Assembly (NCBI GenBank): GCA_020432165.1
Contig: JAGQGU010000001.1
Location: 273,705 to 337,704 of the forward strand
Origin: Thermomicrobiales bacterium
Lineage (GTDB): Bacteria; Chloroflexota; Chloroflexia; Thermomicrobiales; UBA6265
Reading direction: 5' to 3'
DNA length: 64,000 nt
Shown here: positions 37,111 through 59,154 of the stretch, piece by piece
Layout: each line of letters begins with the position of its first letter
How positions within the stretch are numbered: the stretch's first letter is position 1
Made by a program: the position numbers and the translations under genes
The notes under the pieces: generated by a model
The model's database searches: none
What the model saw: the letters and a program-made list of their open reading frames with translations, nothing else
Told to the model about the DNA's origin: nothing

Positions 37111-38227
37111 CTACTCCTTGTCGTCCTCTGGCTTGACGAGATACTCCAGCCAGGCATCGACAAACGGATCGAGGTTGCCATTGAGCACACCTTGGGCATC
37201 GCCGACAGTCGCATCGGTGCGATGGTCGGTGACTTGCGTGTAGGGATGGAGCACGTAAGAACGAATCCGGCTCCCGAATCCAGCGGCGATCGCATCGCCC
37301 TTCAGTTCGTTGCGGGCGGCCGCTTCTTCTCGCATTTTCTTTTCCAGCAGGCGGCTGCGAAGGATCTTGTACGCGCTCTCACGGTTCTGTAACTGACTGC
37401 GCTCGTTCTGACACGTCACGACGATTCCCGTCGGCAGGTGCGTGAGGCGGATCGCTGAACTCGTCTTGTTCACGTGCTGACCACCTGCACCGGAACTGCG
37501 ATAGGTATCCACGCGGACATCATCCGGTTTGAGATCGATCTCGGAGTCACTTTCGATTTCGGGAAGGACCTCGACCAACGCGAAAGCTGTGTGCCGTCGG
37601 TGTGCGGAATCGAATGGCGAAAGTCGCACGAGGCGATGGCTCCCACCTTCGCCCTTGAGGAAGCCATAGGCATTGGTGCCCTGGAACTCGATTGTTGCGT
37701 TCTTGATGCCTGCCTCTTCACCGTCGGTGGTATCCAGCAAATCCGCCTTGAGCCCACGCTTGTCCGCCCACCGCAAATACATGCGGCTGAGCATGCTTGC
37801 CCAGTCCTGAGCATCCACACCGCCTTCGCCGCTGTGGATCACGAGGATGGCGTTGGCCCGATCGTGCGGACCATCCAGTGCAGATTCCAGTTCCAGATGA
37901 TTGACTTTGGCGAGCAGCGCATCCCGTTCGGTTTCGATCTCGTCCAGAATCTCTGGCTCATCATCGGCGAGCGCGATCATCTCGAGATAGTCATTGATTG
38001 CTATTTCAGTGCTCGTGAAGCTCTCAACGCGAGCCTTTAGTTCGCCGAGCCGGCGCATTTCTCGCTGCGCGGTATCCGGATCATCCCAGTATTCTGGTTG
38101 AGCGCTGCGGTGCTCGAGATCGTTGATCTCTCGTTCGTCACTATCGAGGTCAAAGACGCCCCCTGAGCGACACGAGGCGCTGTTGCAGCTCGGTCAGGCT
38201 CCTGGAGAGGTCGTCACGCGATGCCAT
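37111..38227 (-). CDS. prfB: Peptide chain release factor 2 (requires +1 programmed frameshift)
   Basis: Frame 0 reads ATG(38227) MASRDDLSRSLTELQQRLVSLRGRL then UGA. The +1 frame continues DLDSDEREINDLEHRSAQPEYWDD.. into the 315-aa ORF, which contains SPF and GGQ (SGAGGQHVNKTSSA). The total length of 1117 nt equals 3n+1. Confidence 0.95.
38149..38155 (-). other. RF2 +1 frameshift site CUU UGA C with upstream SD-like AGGGGG
   Basis: The minus-strand RNA reads AGG GGG CGU CUU UGA CCU. This is identical in logic to the autoregulatory prfB frameshift site. Confidence 0.9.
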
Positions 38228-40208: not shown

Positions 40209-41213
40209 TTGGCGCGATGCGCTCAGCGCATCGCTATTCCGACTTCGCTTCAAGGATGGCTCTCCCGCATGCTTCAGTTCACCGCCACGCTCTTTGCCGG
40301 ATTCATTGCGATCGCTGCCATCTTTGGATTGATCAACTGGTGCCAGAAAGCCTCGACTGGCGATAAAGCCGCGGTGATGGGCCTCTATCTCCTCTGGGGA
40401 ATGCCCGGTGTGCTCATGTTCATCGCCGGACTCGCGCTGGCGGTAAACGGCCGTGGTGAGGGGGCGCCGGTGCTCGGTATCGGATTAGGTCTTTCGCTGC
40501 CATTGCTGAGGCCATTTCGACAACTCGTCGCTCGTTACACGCCCATGGATCCAGATTCGCCAATCGACTACTCCGGTCTGGCGATCGTGCTGGCGCTGCT
40601 CGGCTTCCTGATTCCCACCGTCTTCGTCGATTCTGAGCCTGCGACATCGACTGCCAGCGGCACCGAGGACTTGATCAACGGTGTCCTCCAGCAACTGGTG
40701 GCGTATCTGATGATCGCCTACGTGGCGGTGGGCTATCGCAACTATCGTACCGGCGCGGAAGCTACCGCACGGCTCGGCATCCAGAAGCCTACGAATGTCC
40801 AGATTATTGCTGGGCTCGCGGGAACCGGAGCCGCCTTTGTCGCCGCATATCTGGGTAGCGCCCTCACATCCTGGTTGCAGCCAGATAGCGCGGCGGGTAT
40901 CGATAGCGTCGTGCAGAGCATGGTTGCGGGTGTCTCAAGCGGCATCGTTGCCCTCATACTGGCGTTGGCGACAGGTATTGGTGAAGAAGTCCTCTTCCGT
41001 GGCGCCATCCAACCACGCTTCGGTATCGTGATTACGGCGTTGCTCTTTACCTTCCTCCATGCGCAATACGGGTTCACCTGGATCCTGCTTGGCCTTTTCC
41101 TCATGGGATGCGTCTTTGGTTACATCGCCAAACGCTATGGCACGATGTCTGCCGTGATCGCACACACTCTCTACAATCTGGCGATCGTGATTCTGCAGGT
41201 CTGGATTCTCTAG
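40209..41213 (+). CDS. CPBP-family intramembrane glutamic endopeptidase (CAAX protease-like)
   Basis: Polytopic protein with the three CPBP motifs GIGEEVLFRGAIQPRF, FTFLHAQYG and AHTLYNL. The start could be TTG 40209 or ATG 40269. Confidence 0.8.
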   Translation: MARCAQRIAIPTSLQGWLSRMLQFTATLFAGFIAIAAIFGLINWCQKASTGDKAAVMGLYLLWGMPGVLMFIAGLALAVNGRGEGAPVLGIGLGLSLPLLRPFRQLVARYTPMDPDSPIDYSGLAIVLALLGFLIPTVFVDSEPATSTASGTEDLINGVLQQLVAYLMIAYVAVGYRNYRTGAEATARLGIQKPTNVQIIAGLAGTGAAFVAAYLGSALTSWLQPDSAAGIDSVVQSMVAGVSSGIVALILALATGIGEEVLFRGAIQPRFGIVITALLFTFLHAQYGFTWILLGLFLMGCVFGYIAKRYGTMSAVIAHTLYNLAIVILQVWIL

Positions 41214-41308: not shown

Positions 41309-42880
41309 ATGCGTATCGAAGAAGTTCGCGACCTCGATGGTCCAAATCTCTTTCTGGCTCAGCCGGCTGTAAAGGTGGAAATAGCGGAAGTCCCTGAGGA
41401 ATCCGCCGCCGCGATCATGCTGCAGCTCGCCGAATGCGTCGAGCGCTTGCACGAAGCTACGGGGCAGGGAATACCGCCAATCGTCTCTACAGAGATGGAT
41501 CGTGCTGGCCATATCGCAGTCGCCTTTGGGTGGCAGCGGCGCGCTTACGCCCGCAGTCTGGGCACCTGGGCGGCGCAGCTTGTGATTGGCGAACGTGACG
41601 ACGAGGATGCAGTTGTCATCGATCTGAATGCCATTTTGGATCAACCCGCAGATAGTGACGACGCTCCATTGGTAGTGAAGACGGCCAATGCAGGCATTCC
41701 GGTGATTGCGATCACTGGTACGAATGGCAAGACCACGACCTCGCGCCTCATCGCATACGTATTGCGGCACCTGGGGCACAAGGTTGGCCTCACGTCCAGC
41801 ACGGGTGTCTATGTCAATGGTGAACCGGTTATTCGTGGCGACTACTCCGGCCCATCCGGTGCTCGTCGCGTCTTTGCTGAACCAGGCGTGGAATACGCGG
41901 TACTGGAAACCGCCCGCGGGGGCATGTTGCTCCGTGGTTGCGGATACGACGCCAGCGATGTCGCCGTGATTACCAATGTCACTGAGGACCATATGGGTCT
42001 GCATGGCATCACCACCATCGAGGGATTGGCGCGCGTGAAGGCCATCATCGCCCGCTCCGTCAAGCCGGGTGGATTCTGCGTTCTCAATGCCGACGATTCC
42101 TTCACCCTCGCCATGACCGAGCAGACATCCGGTGTGCCGGTGCTCTTTACCCGTAAGATCAACAATCCGGACGTCGCCAGTCATTGCGCTGCGGGCGGCA
42201 AGGCGATCACCCTCGCCGAGAATGGCGACTTTGTCTGGCACGATGGCTCAGAAACCACCGTTGTTACGAATGTCGTCGACATCCCCATGACATTCAACGG
42301 ACGGGCTACGCACCAGGTGGAGAATGCGCTCGGTGCCACGGCCGCTCTGATTGGTTTGGGAATCTCCTTCGACGATATCAAGTCTGGGCTGGCTGCTTTC
42401 AAGAGCTCGGCAGAGGAAAGTCTTGGTCGCCTCAATCTCTTCGAGATCAACGGCGCGACGGTCATCATCGACTTCGCGCACAACGAAGCCGGTCTCGTTC
42501 ATCTGCTCAACTTCGGTCGCAGCTTCGTCAAGGATGACGGACAGCTCGTCACGATTGTTGGTACGGCTGGTGATCGCGACGATGACGCCGTGGCGGCTAT
42601 CGCCAAAACCGGTGTGGAGATGGCCGACAAGGTTGTATTGAAGGATTCGCACAAGTTCCTGCGCGGGCGGAATCCGGGTGAGATGATGGTGCCGTTGCGT
42701 GCTGGAGCCGCAGCTGCCAATCGACCCGAGGTGGAAGTCGTCGAGTATCCGGATGAGCTGGTGGCGACCCTTACCGAAGTGGAAGCGCTGAAATCCGGCG
42801 ATGTGCTGGCGGTAATGGCCCAGGAGGACTACGAGGAACTCATCGCCAAACTCACCGAGCGAGGCAAGGTTCTGGTCTAG
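41309..42880 (+). CDS. Cyanophycin-synthetase-like ligase with N domain plus Mur-ligase (M) domain but no ATP-grasp (G) domain
   Basis: 523 aa. The start MRIEEVRDLDGPNLFLAQPAVKVEI parallels the CphA start MLKILETTVYRGPNIWARMPAIRYVV. From residue ~135 (PVIAITGTNGKTTTSR..YAVLETARGG..NVTEDHMGLHGI..LARVK) it is collinear to the end with the M domain of the CphA at 56518..59154. No counterpart of the ATP-grasp segment is present. Confidence 0.8.
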   Translation: MRIEEVRDLDGPNLFLAQPAVKVEIAEVPEESAAAIMLQLAECVERLHEATGQGIPPIVSTEMDRAGHIAVAFGWQRRAYARSLGTWAAQLVIGERDDEDAVVIDLNAILDQPADSDDAPLVVKTANAGIPVIAITGTNGKTTTSRLIAYVLRHLGHKVGLTSSTGVYVNGEPVIRGDYSGPSGARRVFAEPGVEYAVLETARGGMLLRGCGYDASDVAVITNVTEDHMGLHGITTIEGLARVKAIIARSVKPGGFCVLNADDSFTLAMTEQTSGVPVLFTRKINNPDVASHCAAGGKAITLAENGDFVWHDGSETTVVTNVVDIPMTFNGRATHQVENALGATAALIGLGISFDDIKSGLAAFKSSAEESLGRLNLFEINGATVIIDFAHNEAGLVHLLNFGRSFVKDDGQLVTIVGTAGDRDDDAVAAIAKTGVEMADKVVLKDSHKFLRGRNPGEMMVPLRAGAAAANRPEVEVVEYPDELVATLTEVEALKSGDVLAVMAQEDYEELIAKLTERGKVLV

Positions 42881-43040: not shown

Positions 43041-44072
43041 ATGGCGAGTGTGCAGCCACTATCAATCTATCCCAACGTTGCCACGGCAACTGGTCCGCGC
43101 GATCAGTTCGGGCGGACGATGAACTATTTGCGCATTTCACTTACGGATCGCTGCAATTTCCGCTGTCTTTACTGCATGCCGCCAACCGGTATGCAGTTCC
43201 AACCCAAAGATGAGATGCTGACCGACGACGAGCTGGTGCGACTGGTTGGTATTTTCGCGCGCGAGGGTGTCACCAAGCTCCGTCTTACCGGCGGTGAACC
43301 GACGATTCGTCCTCATCTCACCGAACTCATTCGGGAGTTCAAATCCTTCCCTGGTATCAACGAAATCGCGATGACGACCAATGCCCTACTTCTGTCGCGG
43401 AAAGCGCAGGAGTATAAGGATGCCGGTCTTGATCGTGTCAATGTCAGCATTGATACCCTCGATCCCGCTCGATTCCGCTTCATGACCCGTGGTGGTCGCC
43501 TCGATCTGGTTTGGGAAGGGATCGAACAAGCCGATGCTGTTGGTCTTGGTCCGATCAAACTGAATAGCGTGGTGGTGAAAGATCACAATCAGGCTGATGT
43601 GCTACAGATGGCTCGCCTTACCCTGGATCGACCCTGGCAGGTGCGTTTTCTGGAGATCATGCCGATGGAAGGTGTCGGCATGATCTATGAGGAAGGCCTG
43701 GTCACCTCTGCCGAAACCAGAGCCGATCTTGAAGCGGAGTTTGGACCTCTGGAGCAGCTGCCCTCACCGGATGCTGACCCTGCCAAACTCTGGCGAATTC
43801 CTGGTGCCAGGGGTACGATCGGCTTCATCAGTCCGATGTCCGAGCCGTTCTGCGAGACGTGCAACCGTATTCGCCTGACCGCCGATGGTAATCTCCGCCT
43901 TTGCCTCCTGCATGGTGATGAAGTGAATCTGCGCGATTTGTTACGGGCAGGCGGTTCGGATGACGAAATCGGCGCACTTATCCGCGAGGGTGTTTGGCGT
44001 AAGCCATGGGGTCATGCCGCCTGGGAAGAACATATTCGCACCATTCGGGGCATGTCGCAGATCGGTGGATAG
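43041..44072 (+). CDS. moaA: GTP 3',8-cyclase (molybdenum cofactor biosynthesis protein A)
   Basis: LRISLTDRCNFRCLYCMP radical-SAM cluster motif, GGEPTIRP, and the C-terminal second cluster CETCNRIRLTADGNLRLCL. Confidence 0.95.
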   Translation: MASVQPLSIYPNVATATGPRDQFGRTMNYLRISLTDRCNFRCLYCMPPTGMQFQPKDEMLTDDELVRLVGIFAREGVTKLRLTGGEPTIRPHLTELIREFKSFPGINEIAMTTNALLLSRKAQEYKDAGLDRVNVSIDTLDPARFRFMTRGGRLDLVWEGIEQADAVGLGPIKLNSVVVKDHNQADVLQMARLTLDRPWQVRFLEIMPMEGVGMIYEEGLVTSAETRADLEAEFGPLEQLPSPDADPAKLWRIPGARGTIGFISPMSEPFCETCNRIRLTADGNLRLCLLHGDEVNLRDLLRAGGSDDEIGALIREGVWRKPWGHAAWEEHIRTIRGMSQIGG

Positions 44073-55382: not shown

Positions 55383-55543
55383 ACTTCAACGAAGAAGACT
55401 GCAGCGATGGTTACAACCATGGTTGATTGACGATCTCATTGATTTCGCGGTACATTCGCGCGGAAACCGGTAGGGTTTGCCCGCACGCCGGCTCCAACAT
55501 TCCCGGCGAATGCACAACCAGATTGCAAGAGGTTTCGCTCCAC

Positions 55544-56383
55544 ATGCTCACGAATTCCGTAACGACCGATGAACTCCCGACCACCCTCGCGACTGGACCA
55601 GGTGTCCTTATGCCGATTGGTGGCGCCGAGGACAAGCTGGACGATAAGGTCATCCTGAATGAATTCGTGCGGCTATCCGGCGGCAGCAAGGCCAGGATCG
55701 CGATCGTCCCGACCGCATCCTCAATCGAAACAGCAGGTCTGCGCTATAAGGCGATCTTCCTCGGATTGGGTGTAGAGAGCGCTGAAGTGATCTACATCGG
55801 ATCGCGGGAAGATGCGAACGACGATGAGACACTGGAGCTTGTCGCCAATGCCTCCGGCATCTTTCTCACTGGTGGTAACCAAATGCGCCTGAGCGCCATT
55901 ATTGGCGGCACGCGTTTGGAACAGATGGTGCGAGAGCGCCACGAAGCCGGTGCAGTTGTGGCAGGAACCAGCGCCGGTGCATCCATTCTTAGCGCTCACA
56001 TGGTGGCCATGGGAGCTAGCGGTGCCACACCGAAGCTGCGCATGGCGCAGATGTTTGCCGGATTCGGACTCATTAGTAACGTCATTATCGACCAGCATTT
56101 CCGTCAGCGCGATCGTATCGGTCGATTGCTGGCGCTCGTGGCTGGAAATCCTGGCTTGCTCGGCATCGGTATCGACGAGGATACATCGGTAGTCATTGAT
56201 AATGATGGCATTCTCCGGGTGGTAGGGCGCCACAGTGTCACCATTGTCGACGGGTCGCAGATGAAGAGCGATATCTTCGAGGTGAAACGCTACGGCGATA
56301 TCACCATTAGTGATGCTCGGCTCCACGTGTTGGGGCCAGGCAAACGATTTGATATGAATGCGCGTAAGATGCTGGTAGATTAG
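55544..56383 (+). CDS. cphB: Cyanophycinase (S51 peptidase)
   Basis: 279 aa from ATG 55544. Motifs are LMPIGGAEDK, IFLTGGNQMRL and the Ser nucleophile segment VAGTSAGASILS. It lies immediately upstream of cphA. Confidence 0.9.
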   Translation: MLTNSVTTDELPTTLATGPGVLMPIGGAEDKLDDKVILNEFVRLSGGSKARIAIVPTASSIETAGLRYKAIFLGLGVESAEVIYIGSREDANDDETLELVANASGIFLTGGNQMRLSAIIGGTRLEQMVRERHEAGAVVAGTSAGASILSAHMVAMGASGATPKLRMAQMFAGFGLISNVIIDQHFRQRDRIGRLLALVAGNPGLLGIGIDEDTSVVIDNDGILRVVGRHSVTIVDGSQMKSDIFEVKRYGDITISDARLHVLGPGKRFDMNARKMLVD

Positions 56384-56517: not shown

Positions 56518-59154
56518 ATGCTGAAGATTCTTGAGACCACCGTCTATCGCGGTCCGAACATTTGGGCACGCATGCCCGCGATCCGCTACGTCGTTGACAT
56601 TGGTGAGTTGGAAGATCGACCAACCAACAAAATTCCCGGATTCTACGAACACCTCACCGAGCTGCTGCCATCGCTTTACGATCACGGCTGTTCGCTCGGC
56701 CGACCAGGCGGATTCCTGCAGCGCATGCGCGAAGGCACCTGGATGGGTCACGTTCTCGAGCATGTCGCTCTGGAACTGCAGAACCTTGCCGGTGCCGAAG
56801 TTTCTCGCGGTAAGACACGCACAACCGGTGAGCGGGGTATCTACAATGTCATCTTTGCCTATGAGCAGGAGGATGTAGGACTCGCCGCCGGTGAGCTGGC
56901 GGTTCGCCTTCTCAACAACATCATCTATCACACCGAACCCGATGTTGACTTCATCAAGGAGCACGAGGAGAAGGTCATTAAGGTGGCCGAGCGCCTCGCC
57001 TATGGTCCGTCGACCGGTTCGATCGTGCAGGAAGCGGATCGCCGCGGCATCCCGCATCTCCGACTTGATCCCCGTCGATCCTTCGTGCAGCTTGGTCACG
57101 GCAAGTATCAGAAGCGTATCTGGGCGACGGTGACATCGGAGACCGCGAACATTGCTGTCGAAGTCGCCAGCAACAAGGAACTTACGAACCGACTCATGCA
57201 TGAGATCGGTATCCCGGTACCGCGTTCGGTCGTGGTGAACTCGGTCGATGAAGCCATTCGTCAGGCTGGACGCCTGCGCTACCCGGTGGTGATCAAGCCG
57301 CTGGATGGAAATCATGGCCGCGGTGTCTTCATCAATCTCACCAGTGCGGAGGATATCCGTGAGTTCTATCCCTCGGCATTGGCCGAGGCGCGTGGACGCA
57401 GCATCATCGTCGAGACCTATCTGCCCGGTCGCGACTATCGCATCCTCGTGGTGAACAATCAGGTTGTGGCGGTGGCCGAGCGCGTGCCGGCTCATGTAGT
57501 TGGCGACGGCAAGCACACCGTGCAACAGCTGATTGATATCACCAATGCTGATCCTCGCCGCGGTGTTGGTCACGAAAAGATTCTGACCAGAATCTCGGTC
57601 GATGGCCAGACAATGGAAGTGCTGGAACGCGATAATCGTACGCTGGAGACGGTGCCAGCCCCGGGTGAGTTTGTACAACTCAAGCTCACCGGCAATATGA
57701 GCACTGGTGGTACCTCGATCGATCGTACGGACGAGATTCACCCGGATAATCACGAGATTGCCCGTCAGGCCGCGATGGTGGTTGGGCTGGATATTGCCGG
57801 TATCGACTTCATCACACCGGATATCGCGCTCTCGGCGCGCGAGAATGGCGGTGGTATCGTCGAGGTCAACGCCGGACCTGGCTTCCGTATGCACACCAAT
57901 CCGACTGAAGGTCACCCGCGCCACGTGGGACGCGCCGTCGTCGACATGATGTTCCCGAAGGGCGCACCGAGTCGTGTGCCGATCGTGGCGGTAACCGGTA
58001 CAAACGGCAAAACCACCACCTCGCGCATGATCGGACACATCATGAAGGTGGCTGGTCGCACGGTGGGGCTCACCACCACCGATGGTATCTACATCGATGG
58101 CACCAAGATCCTCTCGGGAGATATGAGTGGTCCGACCAGTGCCCGTATGGTGCTGAAGAACCCAACGATCGACTACGCCGTGCTCGAAACCGCTCGCGGC
58201 GGTATTCTCCGCTCCGGTCTCGGTTTTGATCGCTGCAATATCGGTGTTGTCACCAATATCGCTGCCGATCACCTCGGCCTGAAGGGTATCGATTCGCTCT
58301 CCGAGTTGGCGCGGGTGAAGGAAGTTGTTGTCGCCAGCGTCATGCGTGATGGCGCCAGTGTTCTCAACGCTGACAACGAATACACCGCCAGCATGACCCG
58401 GGTGGCTCGTGGCGAGATCATCTTCTTCAGCATGGATGAAGACAATCCGGTCGTGCGGGAGCATATCCGCGCCAAAGGCCGGGCAGTGGTTCTACGGCAG
58501 ACACGTCAGGGCGAGATGATTACGATCATCGAGAATCGCCGGGAGACATCTCTGCTGGCCGTCTCGCAGATTCCTGCCACTATGGAAGGACGCATCCGCG
58601 TCAACATCGAGAATGCCATGGCCGCGGCCGCGGCGGCATTGGCCGACGACATCAATCTCGATTACATCCGCTTCGGTTTGCGCACCTTCATCAACAGCTT
58701 TGAGACTACGCCGGGTCGGTTCAACCTGCTCGATCTTGGCAGCAAGCGTGTGTTGATGGACTACTGCCACAATGTCGCGGGTCTTGAGTCCATGGCAGAT
58801 TTCGTCAGCCGCATGGATGCCGAACGCACCGTGGCGGTGATTAGCCTGCCTGGAGATCGCTCCGATGGCGACATGGAAGCTTTTGGCACATTGGCGGGCA
58901 AGGTCTTCGACAAGATCATCATTCGCGAGGATGACAATCGCCGTGGTCGTAAGCAGGGCGAGATCGCCGAGAATCTGCGTGCCGCTATGGAAAGCACCGG
59001 CAAGGACATGGCCGATGTGGAGATCATCCTGAACGAGATGGAAGCCTCCCAGGCTGCTGTCGATCGGTCAGAAAAGGGGGACCTTGTCATCCTTATGGTC
59101 GATAAGCCTACCGCTGTCTGGGCACAGCTGCAGGAGAACCACAAGGGCGCATAG
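56518..59154 (+). CDS. cphA: Cyanophycin synthetase (N + ATP-grasp G + Mur-ligase-like M domains)
   Basis: 878 aa. The N domain starts MLKILETTVYRGPNIW. The ATP-grasp segment is NKELTNRLMHEIGIPVP..PVVIKPLDGNHGRGV..VVEVNAGPGFRMH. The M domain has VTGTNGKTTTSRM..YAVLETARGG..NIAADHLG. Confidence 0.95.
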   Translation: MLKILETTVYRGPNIWARMPAIRYVVDIGELEDRPTNKIPGFYEHLTELLPSLYDHGCSLGRPGGFLQRMREGTWMGHVLEHVALELQNLAGAEVSRGKTRTTGERGIYNVIFAYEQEDVGLAAGELAVRLLNNIIYHTEPDVDFIKEHEEKVIKVAERLAYGPSTGSIVQEADRRGIPHLRLDPRRSFVQLGHGKYQKRIWATVTSETANIAVEVASNKELTNRLMHEIGIPVPRSVVVNSVDEAIRQAGRLRYPVVIKPLDGNHGRGVFINLTSAEDIREFYPSALAEARGRSIIVETYLPGRDYRILVVNNQVVAVAERVPAHVVGDGKHTVQQLIDITNADPRRGVGHEKILTRISVDGQTMEVLERDNRTLETVPAPGEFVQLKLTGNMSTGGTSIDRTDEIHPDNHEIARQAAMVVGLDIAGIDFITPDIALSARENGGGIVEVNAGPGFRMHTNPTEGHPRHVGRAVVDMMFPKGAPSRVPIVAVTGTNGKTTTSRMIGHIMKVAGRTVGLTTTDGIYIDGTKILSGDMSGPTSARMVLKNPTIDYAVLETARGGILRSGLGFDRCNIGVVTNIAADHLGLKGIDSLSELARVKEVVVASVMRDGASVLNADNEYTASMTRVARGEIIFFSMDEDNPVVREHIRAKGRAVVLRQTRQGEMITIIENRRETSLLAVSQIPATMEGRIRVNIENAMAAAAAALADDINLDYIRFGLRTFINSFETTPGRFNLLDLGSKRVLMDYCHNVAGLESMADFVSRMDAERTVAVISLPGDRSDGDMEAFGTLAGKVFDKIIIREDDNRRGRKQGEIAENLRAAMESTGKDMADVEIILNEMEASQAAVDRSEKGDLVILMVDKPTAVWAQLQENHKGA

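Follow-up and report, generated by a model that had tools for sequence, protein, structure and literature searches.

The gene at 41309..42880 (+) of the window, that is, of the whole 64,000-nucleotide stretch of Thermomicrobiales DNA that was analysed (contig JAGQGU010000001.1), encodes a protein of 523 amino acids that resembles the cyanophycin synthetase CphA1 but lacks its entire ATP-grasp domain (the G domain). Judged from its sequence, this G-less protein, identical to protein KC435_01515 of a Thermomicrobiales metagenome-assembled genome (MAG), is an uncharacterised third architecture in the CphA family, conserved and under selection, and it is probably an accessory enzyme of the nitrogen-storage polymer cyanophycin. 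By a modest preference, we read it as a stand-alone "M-type" cyanophycin ligase, made of the Mur-ligase half (M) of CphA, which in CphA1 attaches Arg to the side chain, and a cut-down N domain, that would work alongside a complete CphA1 and a cyanophycinase. To our knowledge, cyanophycin synthesis is at present ascribed to one enzyme, CphA1, with CphA2 as its only known cut-down relative, and no mention or characterisation of a G-less CphA was found in the literature on cyanophycin synthetases that was searched.

The open reading frame (ORF) begins with ATG, and its start codon is unambiguous because an in-frame TGA lies 9 nt upstream, with two codons between. Its G+C content (0.59) is the same as that of cphA1 and of the window. 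Pfam matches placed the protein in the Mur ligase superfamily, with Mur_ligase_M (PF08245, residues 135 to 346, 82.9 bits against a cut-off of 24) and Mur_ligase_C (PF02875, residues 373 to 504, 49.8 bits against a cut-off of 28.4), and there was no other notable match. By comparison, the CphA1 encoded in the window (56518..59154) matched Cyanophycin_syn (the N domain) and about nine ATP-grasp families besides. Neither Pfam nor NCBIfam returned an ATP-grasp match in the G-less protein or in 33 family members, which disposes of the cryptic ATP-grasp that the first-pass annotation had considered, and a G-domain BLAST match was absent from every G-less ORF examined in the fetched loci (numbered below with the prefix L). 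The cyanophycin synthetase model TIGR02068 scored 397 bits, matching over model positions 473 to 860 only and not reaching its cut-off of 850. The best non-CphA model was that of MurE (TIGR01085, 134 bits against a cut-off of 257); none of the MurE, MurF, MurC, MurD, MurT, FolC and CfbE equivalog models rose above its cut-off, and all others fell further below than MurE. Thus, the annotated architecture, N plus M without G, was borne out, as was a closer relationship to CphA than to MurE, MurT or FolC.

The reduced N domain (residues 1 to 113, 41309..41647; beta-beta-alpha-beta-beta-alpha-alpha) is followed by an acidic linker (residues 114 to 127, 41648..41689) with an invariant D118 and P120, which joins N straight to M at the place where CphA1 has its G domain of about 325 residues. 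N domain and linker together are acidic (pI 4.3). Next come the Mur-ligase middle domain, or Mcore (41711..42346), which contains E200 of the ETARGG motif and D227-H228, and the Mur-ligase C-terminal domain, or Mlid (42425..42820), with R374, D388, H391, N392, GDR at residues 421 to 423 and a class-specific loop (K445 to Y450-L451-R452-G453-R454); all these features lie on the + strand. The jump into the P-loop at about residue 135 was located precisely, with TGTNGKTTT at residues 136 to 144 (41714..41740), and the collinearity with the M domain of the neighbouring CphA1 was confirmed by BLASTP from residue 124 to residue 506 (141/391 identical, 36%; E 2e-74). The likeness over the 115 residues after the P-loop, previously put at more than half identical by eye, amounts to about half (58/115, 50%). 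In the AF2 model of the full-length protein (pLDDT 92.2, pTM 0.90), N runs straight into M.

That the protein keeps an N domain, as first annotated, held with the reservation that the domain is reduced. Pairwise BLASTP gave no significant N-terminal similarity to the CphA1 of the window (E 0.088), and PF18921, the Pfam family of the CphA N domain, was undetected in the G-less protein and in all 33 aligned relatives. An hhalign comparison of 48 G-less N-termini with 56 CphA1 N domains aligned G-less residues 1 to 113 with CphA1 residues 2 to 160 over 113 columns (probability 97.9%, E 5.6e-13). Residues 1 to 129 modelled alone gave a pLDDT of 91.7, and in a Foldseek search of the PDB the top 15 matches of this N-terminal model were all N domains of CphA1 or CphA2 (E 1e-5 to 3e-2, TM 0.50 to 0.69), after which only noise was found. 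With the full-length model, whole CphA1 structures (7wae_A, 7lg5_A and 7lgq_A) aligned over N and M together with a TMq of 0.83 to 0.85, compared with at most 0.68 for M-only alignments; therefore the superposition takes in N and M simultaneously and passes over G. On profile and modelling grounds, the G-less N-terminus is a CphA-type N domain, though cut down.

With about 113 residues against about 160 in CphA1, this domain is shorter by about 45. A gap of about 40 residues deletes the loop with the zinc-ligand Cys, and the helix aligned to HxxEH has no His. The motif affected, Cx19HxxEH, marks the zinc metallopeptidase of the CphA1 N domain, the endo-cyanophycinase site that generates primers (PMC9262961), so that the G-less N domain is devoid of this site. 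The motif occurs in 83% of CphA1s and is not strictly defining; it is intact in the CphA1 of the window. Residues E5, R7, L9, P12, N13, P19, A20, K22, A72, W75 and R78 of the reduced domain were invariant in the 33 family members. Its conserved GPN(L/I)(F/W) hairpin, the GPNxF loop of the window protein, matches the GPNxW/F loop by which the CphA1 N domain contacts M (PMC9262961).

In TeCphA1, ATP and Mg2+ are bound by K499, T500, T522, E558, R731 and H748 (PMC9427784), to which K141, T142, S164, E200, R374 and H391 of the G-less protein correspond. These six residues, together with D227 and H228, were invariant across the 33 family members. The comparison of conserved positions covered the 56 alignment columns that are at least 85% conserved in CphA1 M domains and at least 90% conserved in G-less proteins, and in 55 of them both groups had the same residue. 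Positions shared by CphA1 and the G-less proteins where MurE differs were R146, D178, A202-R203-G204 of ETARGG, F364, N392 and G453-R454 (of RGR). The ATP/Mg2+ catalytic set is intact, from which catalytic competence of the G-less protein is predicted computationally, and, being built of N and M, the protein would keep the complete M-site apparatus of CphA1. A few changes were specific to the class: G184, which is Ser in 95% of CphA1s; R209, replaced by E, S or A in CphA1; H335, where TeCphA1 has the adenine-stacking F692; and an invariant Y450 with a one-residue insertion just before RGR, in a loop that aligns with the DNPR motif of MurE. The DNPR motif sets the amino-acid substrate of MurE. 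Changes such as G184, R209 and Y450 with its insertion suggest an acyl or amine specificity not identical to that of the CphA1 M domain.

The G-less gene belongs to a real family. The same sequence is encoded on 5 contigs, and its two Pfam domains recur in more than 120 relatives of 520 to 565 amino acids. In other Thermomicrobiales, syntenic orthologues, arranged as ParB, CPBP protease, the G-less gene and MoaA, encode proteins of 521 to 549 amino acids, again with these two domains, which excludes the assembly or deletion artefact for which the first-pass annotation had allowed. When one genome per species was scanned, full-length relatives turned up in Sphaerobacteraceae, Thermomicrobiales and Chloroflexia, as well as in Actinomycetota (Kribbella, Nocardioides, Terrabacter and others). 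With the Kribbella protein as the query, all named species of that genus among the 120 best matches had the protein, Kribbella flavida DSM 17836 included. ORF mining of the fetched loci yielded a second G-less clade, in Gammaproteobacteria (Lysobacterales, Luteimonas, Steroidobacteraceae) and Myxococcota (Nannocystis, Plesiocystis); hhalign identified the N-termini of this clade as homologues of the reduced N domain seen in the first (probability 89%, E 2e-6). The family is thus found in four phyla: Chloroflexota, Actinomycetota, Gammaproteobacteria and Myxococcota. An N-terminal profile search of 1.84 billion representatives gave 158 matches, a figure that undercounts the family, since the profile represents the Thermomicrobiales clade, from which the N domains of actinobacterial and proteobacterial members diverge. 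In the databases these proteins appear as "Mur ligase family protein" (the PGAP name), "Mur ligase middle domain protein" or "cyanophycin synthetase". Purifying selection acts on the gene, dN/dS being 0.10 between two Kribbella sequences and 0.13 between two from Terrabacter.

Some actinobacterial members are apparently longer by about 190 amino acids at the C-terminus. In that of Terrabacter sp. BE26 (L019:9911-12187) the extension is a TPR_5 domain (E 8e-24), and it was assumed from length alone for L021:11735-14032 (-) (a 766-amino-acid ORF), L014 and protein P0199 (745 amino acids). Taken over its whole length, the L019/L021 pair shows purifying selection. A TPR_5 extension of this kind suggests a function in protein-protein docking.

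The M domains of the G-less proteins were 32 to 44% identical to every CphA1 M domain, and the cognate neighbour was no closer than the others. In a neighbor-joining (NJ) tree of M domains (92 sequences, 393 columns, Escherichia coli MurE and MurF as the outgroup), those of CphA1 were monophyletic (61/100) and the G-less proteins fell outside, in two groups; within the CphA1 part, the CphA1s that have a G-less partner grouped together. A recent origin from the neighbouring cphA1, by duplication or by deletion, was ruled out, because the protein is equally distant to all CphA1s and lies outside their M-domain clade.

The association with cyanophycin genes turned out to be stronger than the first-pass annotation could see, consisting of physical clustering with cphB-cphA1 in four phyla. 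In the window, the cyanophycin pair is formed by cphB (cyanophycinase; 55427..56383, +; TIGR02069, 257 bits against a cut-off of 127) and a full-length cphA1 with N, G and M domains (56518..59154, +; TIGR02068, 1177 bits against a cut-off of 850), whose product is the presumed functional partner. In most loci the G-less gene adjoins cphB-cphA1. The operon lies 0.03 to 9 kb downstream on the opposite strand, in a convergent layout, in Kribbella (L002, L020), Terrabacter (L019, L021), other Actinomycetota (L003, L007, L014, L069) and Chloroflexota (L004, L005, L077); the identity of cphB and cphA1 was checked in L002, L004, L005, L007, L014 and L019, with TIGR02069 matches and full-length TIGR02068 matches above 1100 bits. 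In Lysobacterales and relatives (L075, L076, L080), cphB, cphA1 and the G-less gene follow one another on one strand, and a tandem of cphA1 and the G-less gene was found in L049 and in Plesiocystis (L064). In Luteimonas lutimaris JCM 16916 (L076:6232-14118), the three-gene block sits between trpD and trpC; it resembles an inserted cassette, which speaks for the three genes moving together. A separate ATP-grasp gene that might supply a split G domain was absent among the called genes of four Thermomicrobiales loci and of the gammaproteobacterial cassettes. A promoter and terminator scan around the G-less gene found no more sites than in shuffled sequence.

Compared with CphA1 (TIGR02068; PDB 7LG5, 7LGQ, 7WAE), the G-less protein has the same Mcore and Mlid with the ATP/Mg residues and the ETARGG and RGR motifs, a homologous N domain that is predicted to be oriented to M in the same way, and a cphB neighbourhood in common. 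It differs from CphA1 in the features described above, namely, the missing G domain and Cx19HxxEH, the shorter N domain, the changes at G184, R209, H335 and Y450 with the insertion, and its position outside the CphA1 M-domain clade. CphA2 (PDB 7TA5, 8FXH) is likewise an accessory cut-down relative encoded alongside CphA1, with a catalytically silent N domain. However, in CphA2 the G domain is active and M is truncated and inactive (PMC10273328), while the G-less protein has a complete and apparently active (predicted) M, including Mlid, and no G, so that the two truncations are indeed opposite, as first annotated. CphA2 is also described as a specialised cyanobacterial enzyme (PMC9262961), in contrast to the four-phylum distribution of the G-less family. 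MurE has in common with the G-less protein a P-loop, both Mur-ligase domains (middle and C-terminal) and, as expected throughout the superfamily, an acyl-phosphate mechanism. The G-less protein is set apart from MurE by the lack of the Mur N-terminal UDP-binding domain and of a cell-wall gene context, by model scores of at most 134 bits against cut-offs of at least 257, and by the replacement of DNPR with Y-L-R-G-R.

Another second CphA-like gene adjoining cphA1 is the beta-proteobacterial tandem CphA'. Unlike the G-less gene, it is located upstream of cphA1 and its product matches CphA1 residues 2 to about 730 (N, G and Mcore, without Mlid). It was found in L016, L022, L027 to L030, L032, L041, L046, L052, L066 (Nitrosomonas europaea) and L073. 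These loci are mostly of beta-proteobacterial type, L027 being a Polyangiaceae MAG and L032 a Gammaproteobacteria MAG. None of the 11 CphA' partner CphA1s checked (all these loci but L073) had the full Cx19HxxEH, with L029 and L041 keeping HxxEH only, whereas the CphA1 partners of G-less proteins keep the motif. A third kind of CphA pairing was seen in L008:5690-11131, where two full-length cphA1 genes stand in tandem (42% and 39% identical to the CphA1 of the window).

The G domain of CphA1 extends the poly-Asp backbone. Having no G domain, the G-less protein cannot extend a backbone and is not expected to polymerise cyanophycin de novo, and as a ligase of this polymer it would have to act in trans on chains made by CphA1. 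A chain of the cyanophycin type would be bound in the groove between N and Mcore, as in CphA1; ATP would phosphorylate a free carboxylate, most likely the beta-carboxylate of an un-arginylated Asp; and an amino acid, either Arg or a related amine, would then be ligated to the activated carboxylate. Such an activity may serve the finishing or repair of bare Asp residues, the re-charging of side chains or the installation of a second kind of side chain. Computation shows catalytic competence, residues for a CphA-type substrate and the coupling of the genes in genomes; which substrate and which nucleophile are used, and to what end in the cell, we infer. The more specific proposal that the protein represents a third class of cyanophycin enzyme, a dedicated side-chain ligase and functional mirror of CphA2 acting in trans on poly-Asp or on partially stripped cyanophycin from CphA1, is put forward tentatively, as a possibility that we rate below even chance.

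Several observations weigh against a stand-alone M-type ligase. The only Asp that the CphA1 M domain accepts is an unmodified one at the C-terminus (PMC9427784), so that activity at internal Asp would need a change. The partner CphA1s have intact M-domain catalytic residues and an intact Cx19HxxEH, and no missing activity is visible in them; with no obvious defect in the partner, the added value of a second M site is unexplained, which is the main caveat. By the same token, compensation for a defective partner CphA1 was ruled out as a role for the protein. The phylogeny is NJ only, and its deep support is weak (61/100 for CphA1 monophyly, 21/100 for G-less monophyly). In the window itself, the G-less gene lies 12.5 kb upstream of cphB (14 kb from start to start), amid the housekeeping synteny described above, and linkage to cphB-cphA1 is loose in the Thermomicrobiales that share this synteny.

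The absence of an obvious deficit in the partner also fits a hetero-oligomer, in which the G-less protein would be a catalytic or scaffolding subunit assembling with CphA1, raising the ratio of M to G sites or tethering the polymer, and not an independent enzyme. Its tight pairing with cphA1, the clustering of the partner CphA1s in the tree and the TPR_5 protein-interaction domain of some actinobacterial members point the same way, and the contact surfaces of CphA1 lie on N and M, with the M-contacting GPNxW/F loop conserved (PMC9262961). The fully conserved ATP/Mg residues, however, argue for catalysis over mere scaffolding. We consider this explanation unlikely as a full account, but it overlaps with that of a stand-alone ligase and is a serious rival or a complement to it. 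Less probable still is a small-molecule ligase of the pathway, one that would make beta-Asp-Arg or short primers from Asp and Arg, or modify the dipeptide released by cyanophycinase. Clustering with cphB as well as with cphA1, a reduced N domain whose polymer-cleaving site is lost and class-specific changes near the predicted substrate loops would suit it; yet the partner CphA1s keep the primer-generating Cx19HxxEH site, so an external source of primers seems unneeded, and the retained N domain and N-M groove suggest a polymeric substrate (PMC9427784).

The remaining two explanations do without cyanophycin or without function. An ordinary Mur-family ligase, MurE-, MurT- or FolC-like, whose likeness to CphA1 would reflect shared ancestry, agrees with the PGAP name, with the location among housekeeping genes in the Thermomicrobiales that share the synteny of the window and with the relationship of CphA M domains to MurE and MurF (PMC11915815). 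It is highly improbable given the 397 bits of the CphA model against 134 for MurE, the scores of the MurE, MurF, MurC, MurD, MurT and FolC models far under their cut-offs, a CphA-type N domain in place of the Mur N-terminal one, the CphA1-specific residues retained and the proximity to cphB-cphA1 across four phyla. As for a duplicated cphA1 in decay, or a deletion made in assembly, the missing domain is all that speaks for it, against more than 120 homologues of 520 to 565 amino acids with the same domains, the identical protein on 5 contigs, syntenic orthologues of the same length, dN/dS of about 0.1, invariant catalytic residues and equal distance to all CphA1s; we regard its probability as close to nil.

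Other genes around the G-less gene were recorded as well. Directly upstream in the window is a gene for a CPBP/Rce1-like membrane protease (40209..41213, +), a conserved neighbour in Thermomicrobiales only. It lies on the same strand, with a gap of 70 to 110 nt, in every Thermomicrobiales locus sharing the synteny of the window (L081, L083, L084, L085), and it is absent beside the G-less gene in L005, where ParB is directly upstream, and in other phyla. The immediate downstream neighbour in Thermomicrobiales (L081, L083, L085) is moaA (GTP 3',8-cyclase; 43041..44072, +, in the window), which was also found about 3 kb upstream of the G-less gene in Actinomycetota, in L002:6259-7278 (TIGR02666) and, as deduced from BLAST clustering, in L003, L009, L014, L020 and L069. 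This recurrence could be coincidence or relic synteny, no functional link being apparent. In a related Thermomicrobiales contig (L081:11667-13160), an IS66-family transposase directly follows the G-less gene and parts it from moaA, leaving the gene undisrupted. Farther off, at 38148..38163 (-), upstream of the RF2 ORF (37111..38058), is a prfB +1 frameshift site, with an SD-like AGGGGG followed by CTT TGA C; this ordinary programmed frameshift explains why the ORF list shows only 315 amino acids.

That a conserved G-less relative is inherited together with cphB-cphA1 in four phyla suggests an unrecognised step in which cyanophycin is made, repaired, re-charged or diversified. For enzymology, it would be a natural separable M-domain enzyme with which the side-chain reaction could be studied apart from polymerisation, and for biotechnology it is a possible tool for tailoring the side chains of cyanophycin or arginylating poly-aspartate. 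Cultured carriers, such as Kribbella flavida DSM 17836, Terrabacter, Luteimonas lutimaris and Plesiocystis pacifica SIR-1, make the idea testable. If it is true, the polymer could be re-charged with Arg without rebuilding its backbone, or be given a second kind of side chain, and many soil Actinomycetota, Chloroflexota, Lysobacterales and relatives, and myxobacteria would have a three-enzyme cyanophycin system consisting of CphB, CphA1 and the G-less ligase.

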